Shown here: positions 8,885 to 40,870 of the stretch, in pieces
Layout of the letters: the number at the start of each line of letters is the position of its first letter
Position numbering within the stretch: the first letter of the stretch is position 1
IMG/VR virus record: IMGVR_UViG_2534682157_000018
Source: a virus
Taxonomy: Duplodnaviria > Heunggongvirae > Uroviricota > Caudoviricetes
Length of the DNA: 42,422 nt
Reading direction: 5' to 3' (one strand)
Translations under genes and position numbers: made by a program
Notes under the pieces: model-generated
Seen by the model: the letters and a program-made list of their open reading frames with translations, nothing else
What the model was told of the DNA's origin: nothing
Database searches by the model: none

Positions 8885-9814
8885 TCACGGCAGCCGGGGA
8901 ATTTTTTTTCTGGTTATCGTAGGTGCTTCATCTGCTGCGGTAATGCTCAATTGAACCTGGATAATGTCGCTATTACCCCCATCAGGCCATTCACCTGACA
9001 CCTGAACCTTCGGGAAACTGAAAGTGTATGCCCCCTCTCCATTCGAAAGCGTGAAGCTGAACGGAACTGTTTCTCCAGTCAGTGTTTTACTCCAGATTTC
9101 CCACGCGGCTTTAGACCATGAAAGCGTCACCGTACCGGACGGTGTAAAAGTAGTCGGAATATTTGCTCCTGCATAAGGCGAGCCAGTCCCGATACAACGC
9201 TGTGTCTGGAGTTTGTTATCGAACTGAATATCAAAACTGTCGATACAAAAACCGTTACCTCCGGCAACACCATTCAGGCTTACTGCTGAAACCTCCTTAA
9301 ACGAATAACGTAGCTTTCCTGCACTATCCACAGGTTCGCCTTTGATAAAATTCGTATCATCGGCCTTTGATTCCCAGTCCAGTCCGGCAAAGGTTACGGT
9401 CGCTGTAATATCGCCGTCGTTAGGGATCTGCATTTTCCATGAGCCAACCTGCGCTCCTCTGACGACAGAGGCAATTCCGACATCGGACGCATAGGTCGCC
9501 AGAGAAAATGTTATTCGCTCATTCCCCATTGTCAGAGAATCGCCTGACCATTCCGCGCCGAAACAGGATGCAAGAAAATCATCATGTTGACCCCAGCGAA
9601 ATTTGGTACCAACATCACCGCCGACATCCACAGTGCCAGGCGTCGCCCCCTGAGCCATCCGGGAGCCACCAATCTCATTATTTTCGCCTTTATTCTGGGT
9701 GGGTTTTACTCCCCAGCTTGTGCGTTTTAATAAACTCCAGTCACCACTTGCTGGCGTAGTGCCTGCAACCGTCTCCCGGATAAATGCCGAGATAACCTTT
9801 GCACCTGAACTCAC
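8885..9814 (-). CDS. major tail (tube) protein
   Basis: 309-aa ORF directly upstream of the G/GT pair; assignment by synteny only, not lambda V-like by sequence. Confidence 0.55.
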   Translation of the reverse strand: MSSGAKVISAFIRETVAGTTPASGDWSLLKRTSWGVKPTQNKGENNEIGGSRMAQGATPGTVDVGGDVGTKFRWGQHDDFLASCFGAEWSGDSLTMGNERITFSLATYASDVGIASVVRGAQVGSWKMQIPNDGDITATVTFAGLDWESKADDTNFIKGEPVDSAGKLRYSFKEVSAVSLNGVAGGNGFCIDSFDIQFDNKLQTQRCIGTGSPYAGANIPTTFTPSGTVTLSWSKAAWEIWSKTLTGETVPFSFTLSNGEGAYTFSFPKVQVSGEWPDGGNSDIIQVQLSITAADEAPTITRKKIPRLP

Positions 9815-24636: not shown

Positions 24637-25224
24637 TTTTCCTCACATATGTCATATAGTAAAGGATTATATATACCGTTGTTTTGGACGCTCAAACAGC
24701 GAATCAGATCAAATAAAACGCACATTTGTTAACATTTACACAAAGTCTGCGTGGGATATTCTGAAAGAATATCCATAATGTGGAGAGAATCTATTGAAGT
24801 GCATGGTGCCGGGTGCCTCCCGGTGAACAAAATGTTCGTGATACCTGTCGGCGACAGAAAAGGTTAATGGTATCACCCCACCGCACAGGGGGATTCACCA
24901 TGCAGGAGTTTTCTTAGCAAACTCACTGCGCGCCCGGCAACTCCCAACCACATAAAATGCGGAGTTTGTGGTATTTATGCATATAACTCGCAGGAATTAT
25001 CTTAAAAAACTGATGTCGATCCGGATTAAAAAGAAGCAGGTCATCATCAGATGACTGGAAAAAAGGAAACAAAAAATACTCATCATACAGTTTTGATTGC
25101 AGGGATGAGCCTGCTATGCACAATATGCAGAATATAAGCAAGATAAAAATATGCAGGCATATTATTTCGGATTTTGTTATTAACACAACCTTTTTAATAA
25201 TCATTTGGCATACAATAAACCAGC

Positions 25225-27108: not shown

Positions 27109-27574
27109 TTCTCAATCTCTCGATGGCGCAGTGCAGCAGATGCCAGTTGTTCAGGCTGACGTATAAAGTATAAATAAACTGGTTCCAGTGTAAAGCCCCC
27201 ACCTTAATGGAATAAAAACCAAACAACAGATTGCTGGGATACAAACAACGCTTATTATTAAAAGCGGTTAAACAAATTAAATTTTAATGTTATGCAAATC
27301 TACCAGATCACCATAATATCTCATTTGAAAACCACTGAAATAACAACCCTATCAGGATTAATCATATTAAGGTGAGTAAATATGGAAAACAACAAATCTG
27401 CACATTACGCTCCTTTTTTATCTGTAATACTTTTTGTTTTATGCTGTGCGTGGGCATTATTTTTATAAAAATATTTACAGATAAAATAAACCCGCCAAAG
27501 CTGGTTAAGTGTGGGTGCGTTGAGGATGCATAATACATCAGAGGTGGCGAGGGATTTCTCCCTCGCCCGGTCTC

Positions 27575-27787
27575 TTACTCCTCAGGTTCGTAAGCTGTGA
27601 AGACAGCGGCCTCCGTCTGCCCGGTTCGGATTCGTACCTCGCAGAGGTCTTTCCTCGTTACCAGTGCCGTCACAATGACGGTTAAACAGATGACGATCAG
27701 GGCGATTAACATCGCCTTTTGCTGCTTTATAGCCTGCTTCTCCTTGCCTTTCGGCACGTAAGAGGCTAACCTACATGTGCAAAGCAT
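27575..27787 (-). CDS. hokD: Hok-family type I toxin (HokD/RelF-like core), maximal ORF with N-terminal extension
   Basis: C-terminal 45 aa MLIALIVICLTVIVTALVTRKDLCEVRIRTGQTEAAVFTAYEPEE is near-identical to E. coli HokD/RelF from memory; the codon where I recall the HokD start Met is ATA here; an in-frame ATG at 27787 has a GAGG 8 nt upstream. Confidence 0.8.
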   Translation of the reverse strand: MLCTCRLASYVPKGKEKQAIKQQKAMLIALIVICLTVIVTALVTRKDLCEVRIRTGQTEAAVFTAYEPEE

Positions 27788-27941
27788 GAAATTGGCCTCA
27801 GATTAATGTTAAGCGTCTTGCCGGACGCGTAATGTTAACTGGGGCTTTTCTCTATCTGCCTTTGGTGTTCATGCCCGAGGCAGATAGCCTCAAGCACCCG
27901 CAGCAATTCTACTTAACTCCCGTCACCTCGCCAATATAAAA

Positions 27942-28031
27942 TCAATCAGAAAGGCGATCCATAAGAACAACAGCAAGACAATAAATTGCTATTACAGCAG
28001 CAATAGCCAGCGCACATTTGAGAACCAGCAC
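27942..28031 (-). CDS. candidate small hydrophobic peptide (29 aa)
   Basis: AGGAGG 5 nt upstream of GTG start; translation (M)LVLKCALAIAAVIAIYCLAVVLMDRLSD is one predicted TM helix plus an acidic tail; below ORF-track cutoff. Confidence 0.35.
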   Translation of the reverse strand: MLVLKCALAIAAVIAIYCLAVVLMDRLSD

Positions 28032-28356
28032 GACAACCTCCTGTATTGGACGCACACCAGTCCTGATAAATATGAGGCTGTCTCGTCAGTGATTCAATAC
28101 AACTATTGGGTATAGTTTATCTATTTTTCTTTGGCAATGGAACACAACAGCCAAACATAACCAACACTTCTTCAGATGTATTAAGTCAGGCCCCAACCAG
28201 CATTTTGAGTAAGCAGTTCACTCAAATATGACTATCTGATTTGAGCGACGTGCGAACATTTACGATAGCTTCACTATGATTGGTACATTCTGCAATCTCT
28301 TTGTCTCAGAAAGTCGAAAGTAGCTTAAGCTATATTATCAAGAGGATAATCATCAC

Positions 28357-28398: not shown

Positions 28399-30655
28399 TT
28401 ATTGAATTTGCAGGTTTGTACGTAAGGAACCTGTAGATTCCTCATATAACTTAGATATATAATTAGACATATCATGGTTACTTCGTACTTTTTTATTGAA
28501 TTTTTTCAGGTACTTATCAACCGTAGTGCTAAGTAGCCCTGAGTCGTCTGTAACGTGAGTTATCCCTAAATTAATCAAAACACCTAATTTATTTTTTTCC
28601 ACTAAGCTATCAAATGCGGATTTATCCCCGAGCTCATTCAGTGTTGATGCTATGAAGAAACGTGCATAATCAATATGTTCACCAATTTCCTCATATTGTT
28701 CAATTTGAACTGACAAGTCTTCCAAGGCAGATTTGAAAAAATCATATGCGTAATTGTTACTTAAACACTTTGTGAAAATACAAAGAAGAGCTACTGGTGA
28801 AAACTCCTTCAGCGGGATGTCGGTATTTCCCTTGAGAATATCAACATATAATTTACCTGCATCTATATATGATAAAAAGACTCCCCTCGTTATTTTTTTA
28901 TACGGAGTTAGATATGAAGCCAAATAAAAAGAACCGTTATAAAATAACCTTAAAAATCTTGTTTTATCGTTACTAGGTTTAAGTTCATTAATTTTATCAA
29001 TAAGATATTCATTGTCTCTTAACAAACCAAAATAGAAGAAATAACTATTTGCCCAATAAATATCATAAATATTATCATTTATGTCTATTAGGCCACGCTT
29101 CCTAAGTCCTTCAGCGTAAAAATACTCCATGAATGATCTGTGTAGAAATGAGAACGTATTACTTCTAACATTAACTGTTGTTACTTCACTGCGATAAATT
29201 AGTCTTTTGAAAAGTTTGTCCTCATCAACATTCAAGTTTCTTTTGGCCAAATAATTTAAAAACATGTCCTGCACTTCTGAAATTGATATGCAGTTTAGAG
29301 AGTTATCCATCATAAATATCGCAATTTCTACTAATATATTACTTATTACATCATATTCTGTTTGCGATAATAATCCCTTAGATGTATCCCATCGTCCCAA
29401 TACTATCTCACTGTATTTTGAGTATAGTTCTGTCATTGTAGATGGTAATTCTTTAATCTCATCAGAGAGTATTCTTGCCAGAAGAATAGCGCTCACTGGA
29501 GTCCTGGGAATGAACTTAAATAGTGGTGTTTTTCTATACCATTTTTAAGTTTATTTGTTATTTTAATGTCATTGCAGATTTTATCTACAAAGTCGATTAT
29601 TTGACCTGTGCTAAGTGGTATTATCGAGTATCTTGCAAACATCTGATCGATAACTTCATAGTCCTGAAGAGAATCCATAATTCTTGAAGCAACTAGTAAT
29701 CGAATTTTATCATTCCTGGATACTTTCTCTACAATGTCCCTGAAATTGTTTTGCCTTTCCTCAAGTGATTCCTTTACTTCATCCACCGAATCAACAATTA
29801 ATAAAATATTCCCATCATGTTGTATTTTGTACTTACTTAACACACTTTGTATTATATTTTCAACATTAAGTTTTTTTCTAGAACATCCTTGTATTGACAA
29901 AATACTGGAAGGATGTAGTCTTTTTCGTAAGAATATTCTTCTTTTATTTTTCTAATTAACTGTTTCAGCAAAGTACTTTTCCCAGAGCCAACGGTTCCCT
30001 CTAAAAAAATAAATCTCTCGGCTCTCACAACACTATACAGTTTTAACGGCCTGTGTCTGCGTTTTTTATGATCTTCCTTGCTTACATATCTATCAATAAG
30101 GTTATTTATGCCAACACTACCAAAAAAAGAGCTTTCAGGTGTATCACTTATAGTTTGCAATGTATCTGTTAAGTATTGTTCATAATTAATGGATTCGAAA
30201 TCCCAAAACTCTGGGTAATATTTACTGATTAAAGAACATATTTTTTCACCCTCTATAAATTTTATATTTGTAGATTTGAATTTCAAGTAAATTTTTTCTT
30301 GAGCATTATTTGAGATCGATGAATTAGTAATAACCCAAATTTCATTCAAATGTATGTTCTTAGAGCCAGAAGAAATAAAGCGTGGATATAATTGACACTC
30401 TTCTATTTGTCGTTCAACCTCACTATTTGACTGAATTATCTTTCCAACTTTACAAATAACACCAATATATATTTCCTCGTCTAATGCCTCATCTCGTTTA
30501 ATTATGACAAAATCAGCACCTTTTTCTGATGGTCCTTGCTTATATTCAACATGTGTAACAGTCGGCAAACGTGGTAGAAGCGCTCTTAGCACTGGATGGA
30601 AATCATCAACCTCACGTTGCAATGATTCTATTTTTCTTAAGTATTCTGGTTTCAT
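28399..30655 (-). pseudogene. NACHT-type STAND NTPase with N-terminal Mrr-like (PD-(D/E)xK) domain, read in three frames (29852..30655, 29493..29900, 28399..29496)
   Basis: Walker A GTVGSGKST at the end of the first ORF; Walker B LLIVDSVDE and LLVASR motif in the second; N-terminal GADFVII...EIYIGVICK resembles an Mrr catalytic core; junctions at T7 (29871-29877) and T5 (29529-29533); visibly AT-rich. Confidence 0.65.
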
Positions 30656-33517: not shown

Positions 33518-33929
33518 ATGACAGAATCGTCGGAAGACCCGCCGCCGCTGAAATGCGCTTTCCGGTAAACGGCCTGGACTGCATCATCATGCGCATCAAT
33601 TGCCGTACTTAACGCTTCCTGCGCCGCCAGTAATGCACGGCGTTCCAGGGTATCGAAGATGCAGAGTCGGTGACGCAGCTCGCGCGGAAGGATTGCCAGA
33701 ACCGCAGGGATCAGTTTCTGAATTTTTCCCTTTGCGCTTTCGTTTCACCTTTCAACCAACGGTGATAGATATTCTGCTGATTGTTCCAGTCCTTGCCTGG
33801 TACCAGGGGCAATTCGCCGCCCCCCTGGCGCAGATATTCTTCAGTAATGGCATTGGCTACCCATGCCTGCCCTTTTTCAGCAGCCAGGGCTAACAACACT
33901 GATTCGATGTGCTCATGCTTGATTTTCAT
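33518..33929 (-). pseudogene. ydaT: YdaT-like protein, frame-interrupted
   Basis: N-part MKIKHEHIESVLLALAAEKGQAWVANAITEEYLRQGGGELPLVPGKDWNNQQNIYHRWLKGE matches K-12 YdaT from memory; after a T5 run (33723-33727) the -1 frame continues ...QKLIPAVLAI... as in my recalled YdaT; stop at about 33518. Confidence 0.7.
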
Positions 33930-40494: not shown

Positions 40495-40689
40495 ATGAGA
40501 TATGACAATGTTAAACCATGTCCATTTTGTGGTTGTCCATCAGTAACGGTGAAAGCCATTTCAGGATATTACCGAGCGAAGTGTAACGGATGCGAATCCC
40601 GAACCGGTTATGGTGGAAGTGAAAAAGAAGCACTCGAAAGATGGAATAAACGAACCACTGGAAATAATAATGGAGGTGTTCATGTATAA
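40495..40689 (+). CDS. lar: restriction alleviation protein Lar (RalR)
   Basis: MRYDNVKPCPFCGCPSVTVKAISGYYRAKCNGCESRTGYGGSEKEALERWNKR..., 64 aa, Cys4 zinc-ribbon. Confidence 0.8.
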   Translation: MRYDNVKPCPFCGCPSVTVKAISGYYRAKCNGCESRTGYGGSEKEALERWNKRTTGNNNGGVHV

Positions 40690-40870
40690 AATTACCGCCA
40701 CTATTGAAAAGGAAGGTGGCACTCCTACTAACTGGACAAGATATTCAAAATCTAAACTAACGAAATCAGAATGCGAAAAAATGCTCTCAGGTAAAAAAGA
40801 AGCAGCCGTTTCCAGAGAGCAGAAAGTAAAACTGATAAATTTTAATTGCGAGAGACTTCAGTCCTCGTGA
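40682..40870 (+). CDS. ydaC: small protein YdaC-like
   Basis: From internal Met MYKITATIEKEGGTPTNWTRYSKSKLTKSECEKML...; overlaps lar stop. Confidence 0.5.
   Translation: MYKITATIEKEGGTPTNWTRYSKSKLTKSECEKMLSGKKEAAVSREQKVKLINFNCERLQSS

Follow-up and report, generated by a model that had tools for sequence, protein, structure and literature searches.

On the minus strand of the window (the whole stretch of viral DNA analysed here, 42,422 nucleotides long), a 70-codon open reading frame with an ATG start runs from 27787 to 27575 and translates as MLCTCRLASYVPKGKEKQAIKQQKAMLIALIVICLTVIVTALVTRKDLCEVRIRTGQTEAAVFTAYEPEE. A Pfam search places a Hok/Gef domain (PF01848) at residues 25-66 of this product, with E = 3.5e-22 and 78.2 bits against a cut-off of 22, and the match spans model positions 1-42 of 42. 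When HokD of K-12, as annotated in the MG1655 record, served as a tblastn query, it aligned to positions 27730..27578 with 49 of 51 residues identical, the two differences being M1->I, where the window has ATA, and V41->A. Over the 45 C-terminal codons the agreement is 44/45. The alignment begins at the ATA itself (27730..27728, minus strand), which stands in the place of the hok ATG of K-12, 933W and strain 503025. These results bear out an initial annotation of the locus in several respects: it had claimed a Hok-family toxin gene, near-identity of the 45 C-terminal codons to HokD and a HokD start that reads ATA here. The hok coding region, 51 codons with an ATA start, is placed at 27575..27730 (minus strand) by the K-12 HokD alignment, by the span of the hokD gene that PGAP calls in strain CFSAN061771 and by the Pfam HOK_GEF match.

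The longer frame that contains hok is mok, because its layout is the same as that of the annotated mokW/hokW and mokC/hokC pairs. The mok frame (70 codons, 27575..27787, minus strand) is in frame with hok and ends on a common stop. In the curated annotation of 933W, mokW and hokW have 70 and 51 codons, lie in frame 57 nt apart and use one stop codon; mokC and hokC of K-12 are likewise in frame, with one stop codon and starts 57 nt apart. The mok Shine-Dalgarno sequence, GAGG (27796..27799, minus strand), lies 8 nt before the mok ATG, and GAGG is the mok Shine-Dalgarno motif in R1 (PMC9841398). An in-frame upstream ATG with a GAGG ribosome-binding site had been described before, at a distance of 25 codons from the start of HokD. 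The ATG and its GAGG are there, but the mok ATG (27787) is 19 codons ahead of the ATA, and 25 codons is its distance to the Met26 ATG (27712).

Of 105 sampled alleles, 104 can be read without interruption between the mok ATG and the hok stop, and one is a nonsense allele. Mok codons 2-5 are hypervariable, and in the Rac allele of strain 442/2, which belongs to the same subfamily, a 1-nt insertion shifts mok out of frame, as in R1. Members of the hokW/hokD subfamily usually have mok and hok in one frame, and an upstream extension such as this is what the family normally shows rather than an oddity.

Within the longer frame, hok keeps a Shine-Dalgarno sequence of its own, AAGGAG (27740..27745, minus strand), 9 nt before the hok start position and invariant in all aligned alleles. 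The next in-frame ATG (27710..27712, minus strand) is Met26 of Mok and Met7 of Hok; it is kept across all Hok variants sampled, no well-spaced Shine-Dalgarno sequence lies ahead of it, and it would give a 45-aa product if used. A 45-aa version had earlier been taken for the product of the HokD start, which is incorrect, as a protein of that length begins at Met26. The UACG motif at Hok Tyr46 (27589..27592, minus strand) is retained, and UACG is the reported site of TadA A-to-I editing in hokC/D/E mRNAs (bioRxiv 10.1101/2025.08.07.668861). Both K-12 HokD (bioRxiv 10.1101/2025.08.07.668861) and HokW (PMC8621323) are toxic on expression.

We considered V41A as a second, private damaging change and rejected it. 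None of the 105 aligned alleles carries Ala41, but a targeted probe turned it up in combination with an ATG start, both in the complete locus of DAX4 and in E2348/69, which marks it as a polymorphism. Two NCBIfam models stayed below their cut-offs, namely NF007279 (Hok family toxin subfamily; 43-44 bits against 73) and NF007290 (HokA equivalog; 37-39 bits against 89). These models cover other Hok branches, and the name hokD given by PGAP must come from a rule other than these two. No PADLOC model matched Hok.

Regulatory elements of the hok and sok transcripts

A promoter scan places the hok/mok promoter at 27906..27934 (minus strand), with the -35 element TTGGCG (27934..27929), a 17-nt spacer and the -10 element TAGAAT (27911..27906); all alleles keep the -10 and the start region. 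Transcription is predicted to start at about 27899, the position at which the match to the Rfam model also begins. This match, to the leader model RF01794, covers 27899..27725 (minus strand) and model positions 1-157 of 157, and it scores 115.8 bits against a gathering score of 59. The RF01794 family is built on the R1-type architecture. A second RF01794 match, on the plus strand at 27841..27963 (18.6 bits, E = 0.18), was discarded as noise. From the Rfam match and the folds, the full-length hok/mok mRNA is predicted to measure about 416 nt (27484..27899, minus strand), and about 355 nt is expected for its 3'-processed form.

Three short elements of this RNA account for the pairings seen in the minimum free energy (MFE) folds. 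The tac element at the mRNA 5' end, GGGUGCUUGAGG (27888..27899, minus strand), pairs in the full-length fold with the fold-back inhibitory element fbi, CCUCAACGCACCC (27513..27525, minus strand), which is conserved across alleles; nt 1-12 pair with nt 375-387 of the 416-nt RNA in the window, 503025 and 933W alleles alike. In the same fold, the mok Shine-Dalgarno sequence is paired with the CCCC of the upstream complementary box, or anti-Shine-Dalgarno element, ucb, AAAAGCCCC (27841..27849, minus strand). When the RNA is cut just past its 3' stem-loop, tac pairs with ucb instead and the mok Shine-Dalgarno sequence is freed. The folds thus predict both the tac/fbi lock and the refolding switch in this locus.

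Seven nucleotides past the stop codon lies a perfect 9-bp stem with a GAAA loop (27546..27567, minus strand). The initial annotation had pointed to this perfect inverted repeat and its 4-nt loop, which are confirmed, although it put them at 27543..27564. The repeat is the conserved 3'-terminal stem-loop of the processed hok mRNA and not the terminator of the gene; in R1, the homologous stem-loop shields the Tr-hok mRNA from 3' exonucleases (PMC9841398). The terminator of the hok mRNA is found at 27481..27506 (minus strand), where the alignment of alleles reveals a C->A mismatch in the stem and a UUUG loop in place of UUCG, and where the fold has a weakened hairpin. Beyond the ATA, the changes specific to this lineage are all non-coding: the C->A mismatch in the terminator, the loss of its UUCG loop and three changes at 27530-27534. 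We considered whether these last changes, in the 3' UTR, compensate for mok codons 2-4 and rejected the idea, as by hand pairing the changes lower the predicted pairing with the mok start region. The same 27530-27534 haplotype also occurs with another mok haplotype, and this comparison gives no evidence of covariation.

The initial annotation had proposed a search of the plus strand for a Sok-like promoter and terminator, and that search returned a promoter identical to that of sokW and a Sok hairpin. The sok promoter (27744..27772, plus strand) has the -35 element TTGCCT (27744..27749), a 17-nt spacer and the -10 element TAACCT (27767..27772). From the -35 to the start site it is identical to 933W/Sp5, as well as identical in 91 of the 105 alleles. 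Work on the hokW system detected sokW RNA and showed that HokW toxicity emerges when the promoter is mutated (PMC8621323). The predicted Sok RNA of about 71-73 nt (27779..27851, plus strand) was mapped from the 933W sokW annotation, which corresponds to plus-strand positions 27779..27849. It is predicted to carry a single-stranded 5' tail of 9 nt that is complementary to the start region of mok, with a long hairpin and a U tract after it. Its fold has an energy of -30.2 kcal/mol (z = -4.7), and 0 of 200 shuffles fold as well.

The locus at about 27481..27934 is almost certainly a type I toxin-antitoxin module, a complete hok/mok/sok that belongs to the prophage hokW/hokD subfamily. The mechanism of hok/mok/sok has been established for R1 hok/sok and for hokW-sokW of Sp5. 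It starts from a stable hok mRNA (about 416 nt) that adopts a closed form, with its 5' tac clamped to its 3' fbi and the mok Shine-Dalgarno sequence masked by ucb. Slow trimming from the 3' end to the stem-loop past the stop then allows tac to pair with ucb and exposes the mok Shine-Dalgarno sequence. Translation of mok in turn opens the hok initiation region and leads to the 51-aa membrane toxin. The unstable Sok RNA, whose promoter lies inside mok, blocks toxin synthesis when it pairs with the mok initiation region and directs RNase III cleavage.

Relatives, genomic context and the absence of relBE

The hokW/mokW/sokW locus of 933W and Sp5, a validated type I toxin-antitoxin system (PMC8621323), has about 93% DNA identity to the window over the transcript. 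It shares the 70-codon mok in frame with a 51-codon hok, an identical hok Shine-Dalgarno sequence and sok promoter (-35 to start), the same tac, ucb, fbi and 3' stem-loop, and a location in a lambdoid prophage. The two differ at the hok start, which is ATG in 933W and ATA in the window, and in the 5' tail of Sok, with mok codons 2-3 reading CTT TGC in the window and CTG AAC in 933W. They differ also in the Hok protein, which in the window has Ala41 and a TAYEPEE tail whereas HokW ends in VDYESEK, and the window has another terminator, a Rac-like prophage and other neighbours. With hok/mok/sok of plasmid R1, the window has in common the GAGG Shine-Dalgarno sequence of mok, a 70-codon mok, tac/fbi, ucb, the 3' stem-loop and a Sok promoter inside mok. 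In R1, however, mok is out of frame with hok, the start codon is AUG, the Hok sequence is only distantly similar and the module sits on a plasmid rather than in a prophage.

The closest intact relative that we found with the same Hok protein is hokD of E. coli DAX4, in a Qin-like prophage, which is a complete locus with Ala41 and has the accession WP_162857827.1. It differs from the window in its ATG start, its canonical terminator (CCCGC-UUCG-GCGGG), its mok codons 2-3 (CTA GAC) and the prophage in which it lies.

Comparison with hokD of K-12 (relF, in Qin) bears directly on the absence of relBE. In the Qin operon, hokD follows immediately after relB and relE and has its transcription from the relB promoter. 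Besides the Hok protein itself, with its 49/51 identity, the 3' UTR, 3' stem-loop, fbi and terminator of the two loci are homologous (94.9% over 257 nt). The homology of K-12 relE-hokD to the window begins only at 27744, that is, from the hok Shine-Dalgarno sequence downstream. K-12 hokD lacks the hok promoter, the leader with tac and ucb, the mok start and the sok promoter and RNA, and relBE replaces everything upstream of the hok Shine-Dalgarno sequence; its start is ATG, whereas the window has ATA and is without relBE. Strain E2348/69 has a copy truncated at the same junction as in K-12, by an IS481-family element. Because the homology starts only at 27744, relBE-hokD of K-12 is a truncated, derived form, the complete prophage hok/mok/sok being the norm.

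Tblastn detected no RelB, RelE or Rem homologs in the 42-kb window (best E > 0.2), in agreement with the earlier claim of a hok gene without relBE. The absence of relBE is the rule in this family and not an oddity. The overall reading offered by the initial annotation was correct as to the Hok gene, the missing relBE, the ATA and the upstream ATG, and it went astray in treating as peculiar two features, the extension and the lack of relBE, that are normal in the family.

The initial annotation had also allowed that the locus might be a decayed remnant of relBE-hokD (the relBEF operon). Naming alone speaks for this, in the form of the PGAP hokD call and the 96% protein identity to K-12 HokD. 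Against it, similarity to RelB or RelE is absent throughout the window, and upstream of hok lie instead a complete leader, mok and the sok promoter and RNA, none of which K-12 hokD has; the K-12 homology, moreover, extends from 27744 only. The prophage context is that of Rac (ttcA/intR ... trkG) and not of Qin, with Rac-like neighbours in place of rem, ydfU, ydfT and cspF. We regard a decayed remnant as having next to no chance of being the right explanation and retain the complete module.

Over 12.5 kb, the window is 99.8% identical to strain CFSAN061771. In that genome, a Rac-like prophage at ttcA carries intR, xisR, ralR, recET, kilR, sieB, ydaTUV, NACHT, hok, DUF1367, DUF1364, DUF1133(Q), lysis genes, trkG and structural genes. 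The hok locus belongs to the early-right region of a Rac-like lambdoid prophage, where it is flanked by a NACHT cargo gene on one side and the DUF1367/YbcO/Q genes on the other, and the adjoining gene is NACHT, as had been noted from the outset. In PADLOC, the NACHT protein gives weak P-loop matches only.

By BLAST, the hok family is present in 4727 of 5426 complete E. coli genomes, typically in two copies each, annotated hokD. At the DNA level, the locus is 95-96.5% identical to many prophage copies in E. coli that bear the annotation hokD or MokW, and phage records annotate the same stretch as MokW, HokW or SokW. An enrichment of hok genes in prophages has been described (bioRxiv 10.1101/2025.08.07.668861).

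An ATA codon at the hok start

The hok ATG has become ATA through a G->A substitution at 27728 (minus strand). The hok start thus reads AUA instead of a canonical initiation codon (AUG, or GUG/UUG), even though hok keeps its own Shine-Dalgarno sequence. The rarity of this allele was gauged with a 40-nt probe in which every 28-mer seed contains the variant base, run in an ATA and an ATG version against the 5426 complete E. coli genomes. The ATA probe found 12 places in 12 genomes, and the ATG probe 9294 places in 4668 genomes; the hokD-type places number 11,036. The 12 records with ATA are the same 12 that contain the whole 511-bp locus at a minimum of 99.8% identity; the locus is identical in 11 of them and 99.8% identical in the twelfth. 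The exact 70-aa product occurs on 188 public contigs.

Neither the 105 aligned alleles nor the 120 viral-contig alleles listed include an ATA. In the viral contigs, where the start codon was left fully degenerate in the search, ATG was found in 120/120 among the matches listed. We had weighed the invariance of ATG in these 105-120 alleles as proof of selection and downgraded it, as about 73% of hok columns are equally invariant among the 105 alleles.

An error of sequencing or assembly could produce such a codon, and the window does differ from the near-identical genome of CFSAN061771 by six 1-nt deletions, which hint at error-prone sequencing. All six, however, are indels in A/T homopolymers, and the hok locus is free of them; the ATA, by comparison, is a substitution, present in 12 independently assembled complete genomes and on the 188 contigs. 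We give an error a negligible probability. Because the indels sit elsewhere and the substitution is common to the 12 genomes, the ATA is a genuine rare substitution, fixed in one E. coli lineage, to which strains CFSAN061771, M8 and M160133 belong. Correction of the codon in the RNA, by TadA A-to-I editing of AUA to AUG, was also considered and was rejected: editing needs the motif UACG, and the A here precedes AA.

The 11 genomes with 100% identity over 511 bp come from humans, chickens, mouse, cat and cheese. From one host or country to the next the allele does not change, and its frame has no further lesion. In these genomes (for example, that of strain CFSAN061771), RefSeq/PGAP annotates hokD as 51 codons starting on the ATA, and the protein accession is WP_162857827.1, the same as that of the ATG-started gene of DAX4. 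The exact sequence is therefore already in RefSeq as hokD, and the system is not of a new kind. As a variant, the ATA allele is minor, and its start codon is the sole really unusual feature of a gene that RefSeq already annotates.

Toxin output of the ATA allele

In the window allele, the single G->A change makes the hok start AUA, and all regulatory elements are still in place. We infer that output of the 51-aa Hok is down by about two orders of magnitude. A low level of this product is to be expected because AUA supports little initiation, in E. coli some 0.02-3% of the AUG level (bioRxiv 10.1101/063800), and because start-codon substitutions abolish toxicity in R1. Among the loss-of-toxicity mutations from a saturation suppressor screen in R1 hok were substitutions at start-codon positions 2 and 3, and first-position changes to GUG, UUG and CUG did not turn up (PMC9841398).

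Our preferred reading, held with some confidence, is that the ATA allele encodes an attenuated or inactive toxin. On the same side we counted the weakened terminator stem in this allele and the existence of dead copies in the family, namely one nonsense allele in 105, the IS481-truncated copy of E2348/69 and the relBE-truncated copy of K-12. On the other side we counted the persistence of the allele with all its regulatory elements intact, which could mean that it is still under selection rather than decaying. Taken as one statement, a hok/mok/sok module with an attenuated or inactive toxin is quite likely what the window contains. Such a module would keep its Sok/mok regulatory shell intact around a disabled or weakened toxin and would represent decay by a single step, fixed in one E. 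coli lineage.

From the intact AUG of mok, a 70-aa protein that includes all of Hok should still be made, and the ATA change could be close to neutral if this fusion is toxic. The module might then be fully working, with the toxin made as the 70-aa Mok-Hok fusion or from residual starts at the AUA or Met26, with Sok exerting control via mok and with the ATA being neutral or dosage-tuning. The mok ATG, its GAGG and the frame to the hok stop are all intact, and the allele is free of further coding-frame damage across 12 complete genomes and 188 contigs. Judged by its sequence, the leader of 19 residues has a basic, hydrophilic character, which should keep it in the cytoplasm, and it would not have to hinder insertion into the membrane. 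With the Pfam domain beginning only at residue 25, even a 45-aa product would have the whole domain, and, as a single chromosomal copy of hok kills (PMC9841398), an output of a few percent might still matter.

Several observations nevertheless make a fully working module unlikely. The fusion is not conserved, given the out-of-frame mok of the Rac allele in 442/2 and the hypervariable Mok codons 2-5, and, according to published work, mok counts through its translation and not through its product (PMC9841398). The hok Shine-Dalgarno sequence is invariant and ATG stands at 9294 of 9306 places, neither of which would be needed if the fusion sufficed. Start-codon mutations abolish R1 toxicity (PMC9841398), and Met26 is without a well-spaced Shine-Dalgarno sequence. 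As mok is out of frame in R1, the R1 result does not bear on a Mok-Hok fusion. Our literature searches for the toxicity of an N-terminally extended Hok or of an in-frame Mok found nothing.

It is also conceivable, though we think it improbable, that the ATA allele is no pseudogene but a selected, disarmed module, in which Sok and the mok leader are active and Hok output is a trickle. If so, the locus might serve as an orphan antitoxin against incoming phages or plasmids whose hok matches the Sok target, dampening the addiction or killing that they cause. Alternatively, low-dose Hok, whether initiated at the AUA or made as the 70-aa fusion, might serve persistence or the timing of phage release.

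For the family as a whole, recognizing relBE-hokD of K-12 as the exception should stop similar complete loci from being flagged as odd. On the preferred reading of an attenuated or inactive toxin, the RefSeq accession that the ATA and ATG genes have in common means that catalogues count a probably crippled toxin as intact, and gene callers that disallow ATA would report the 70-aa mok frame as the toxin. The discovery value of the locus is small, and the ATA allele matters mainly as a caveat for annotation and as a natural test of the toxicity of the Mok-Hok fusion, in a subfamily where mok is usually in frame with hok.

The cargo slot beside hok and its NACHT gene

The hok locus is adjoined in the window by a cargo gene on the minus strand (28399..30655) whose product is a STAND NTPase, with a NACHT domain followed by a C-terminal helical NCH1 domain (E = 1e-38) and an N-terminus that weakly resembles an Mrr-like nuclease (E = 0.006). 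None of the PADLOC v2 system models matched this gene. Other prophages carry different genes at the same position: in strain 503025, an AbiH-family gene and a hypothetical gene occupy the slot, which runs from the DUF977 gene to the hok locus, and in phage Rac 442/2 small hypotheticals fill the space taken by the NACHT gene in the window. A second set of coordinates for this slot is L003 265..2654. From these gene contents, the slot beside hok looks like a defence-cargo hotspot of Rac/Qin-type prophages.

The NACHT gene is not intact as the window stands. Relative to CFSAN061771, a near-identical E. coli genome, the window has six 1-nt deletions (at 33728, 32993, 29878, 29534, 28129 and 25070), all within A/T homopolymer runs of 6–8, and two of them break the 752-aa gene into three ORFs (30655..29852, 29900..29493 and 29496..28399). 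This split has the look of sequencing error at homopolymers, not of genuine pseudogenisation, and other ORF calls across the window should be interpreted with these deletions borne in mind.

A conserved small ORF and two further RNAs

Upstream of hok, we also observed a small ORF on the minus strand (27942..28031; 27942..28055 in its longest form), the stop end of which lies 7 nt short of the hok -35 element. An AGGAGG lies 5 nt ahead of its GTG start, and its product is a hydrophobic peptide of 29 aa, VLVLKCALAIAAVIAIYCLAVVLMDRLSD. The ORF recurs in about 28 of the prophage loci compared; each of the 17 unique versions has an open frame and keeps both the GTG start and the GGAG(G) Shine–Dalgarno sequence. 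Variable sites among these versions number 5, 5 and 12 at codon positions 1, 2 and 3, a pattern consistent with purifying selection on a coding sequence. The ORF is without annotation in RefSeq and in three of four phage records, and its peptide had zero matches in Pfam or NCBIfam; the product is a candidate small membrane protein and perhaps a second toxin-like peptide.

Two other RNAs were matched on the minus strand of the window, at 40688..40866 and 24747..24933, listed in that order with RalA first. RalA (RF02694, 220 bits), a second type I antitoxin RNA, neighbours the Rac prophage's ralR region, and the STnc100 sRNA match (RF02076, 87 bits) lies downstream of a Q-like antiterminator gene.

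Allelic variation across the hok locus

The Rac prophage of E. coli 442/2 (MN652886.1, 1631..1844) has a 1-nt insertion (AAAGGTCAAGG; alignment A2, column 161) between the mok and hok starts, and because of it mok is out of frame with hok. Plasmid R1 has the same out-of-frame arrangement, whereas mok is in frame in 104 of 105 other alleles. Two further loci are truncated. In EPEC E2348/69 (L128 1730..2890), an IS481-family element stands in place of the hok leader, mok and sok, and in K-12 (L004 2775..2850) relBE lies upstream; homology to the complete loci starts in both at the identical nucleotide, …CAGGAGAAGCAGGCT ATG. One breakpoint with two different upstream sequences suggests that the two loci share a truncated ancestor or that the junction is prone to recombination.

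The ATG-to-ATA change at the hok start is hidden in protein-level catalogues because RefSeq gives one accession with a Met start, WP_162857827.1, to both the ATA gene of CFSAN061771 (L001 6231..6386) and the ATG gene of DAX4 (L129 2890..3045). Other pipelines call either the 70-aa or the 45-aa frame at the ATA-allele locus. On the plus strand, where the sok promoter occupies 27744..27772, the substitution at 27728 turns GCTTCAT into the A/T-richer GCTTTAT. It falls at about -51 from the point where Sok is predicted to begin, a region in which UP elements act; that it might affect Sok transcription is pure speculation.

The mok start region (27769..27795) is also the 5' tail of Sok, its single-stranded recognition tail. 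Across the 105 alleles compared (L005–L124), a hypervariable stretch runs from directly past the mok Shine–Dalgarno sequence through mok codon 5, with at least eight common haplotypes, and the surrounding leader, sok promoter and hok are nearly fixed. Genomes carry up to ten hok-family copies, and hypervariability at the mok start would fit diversifying Sok specificity between co-resident copies.
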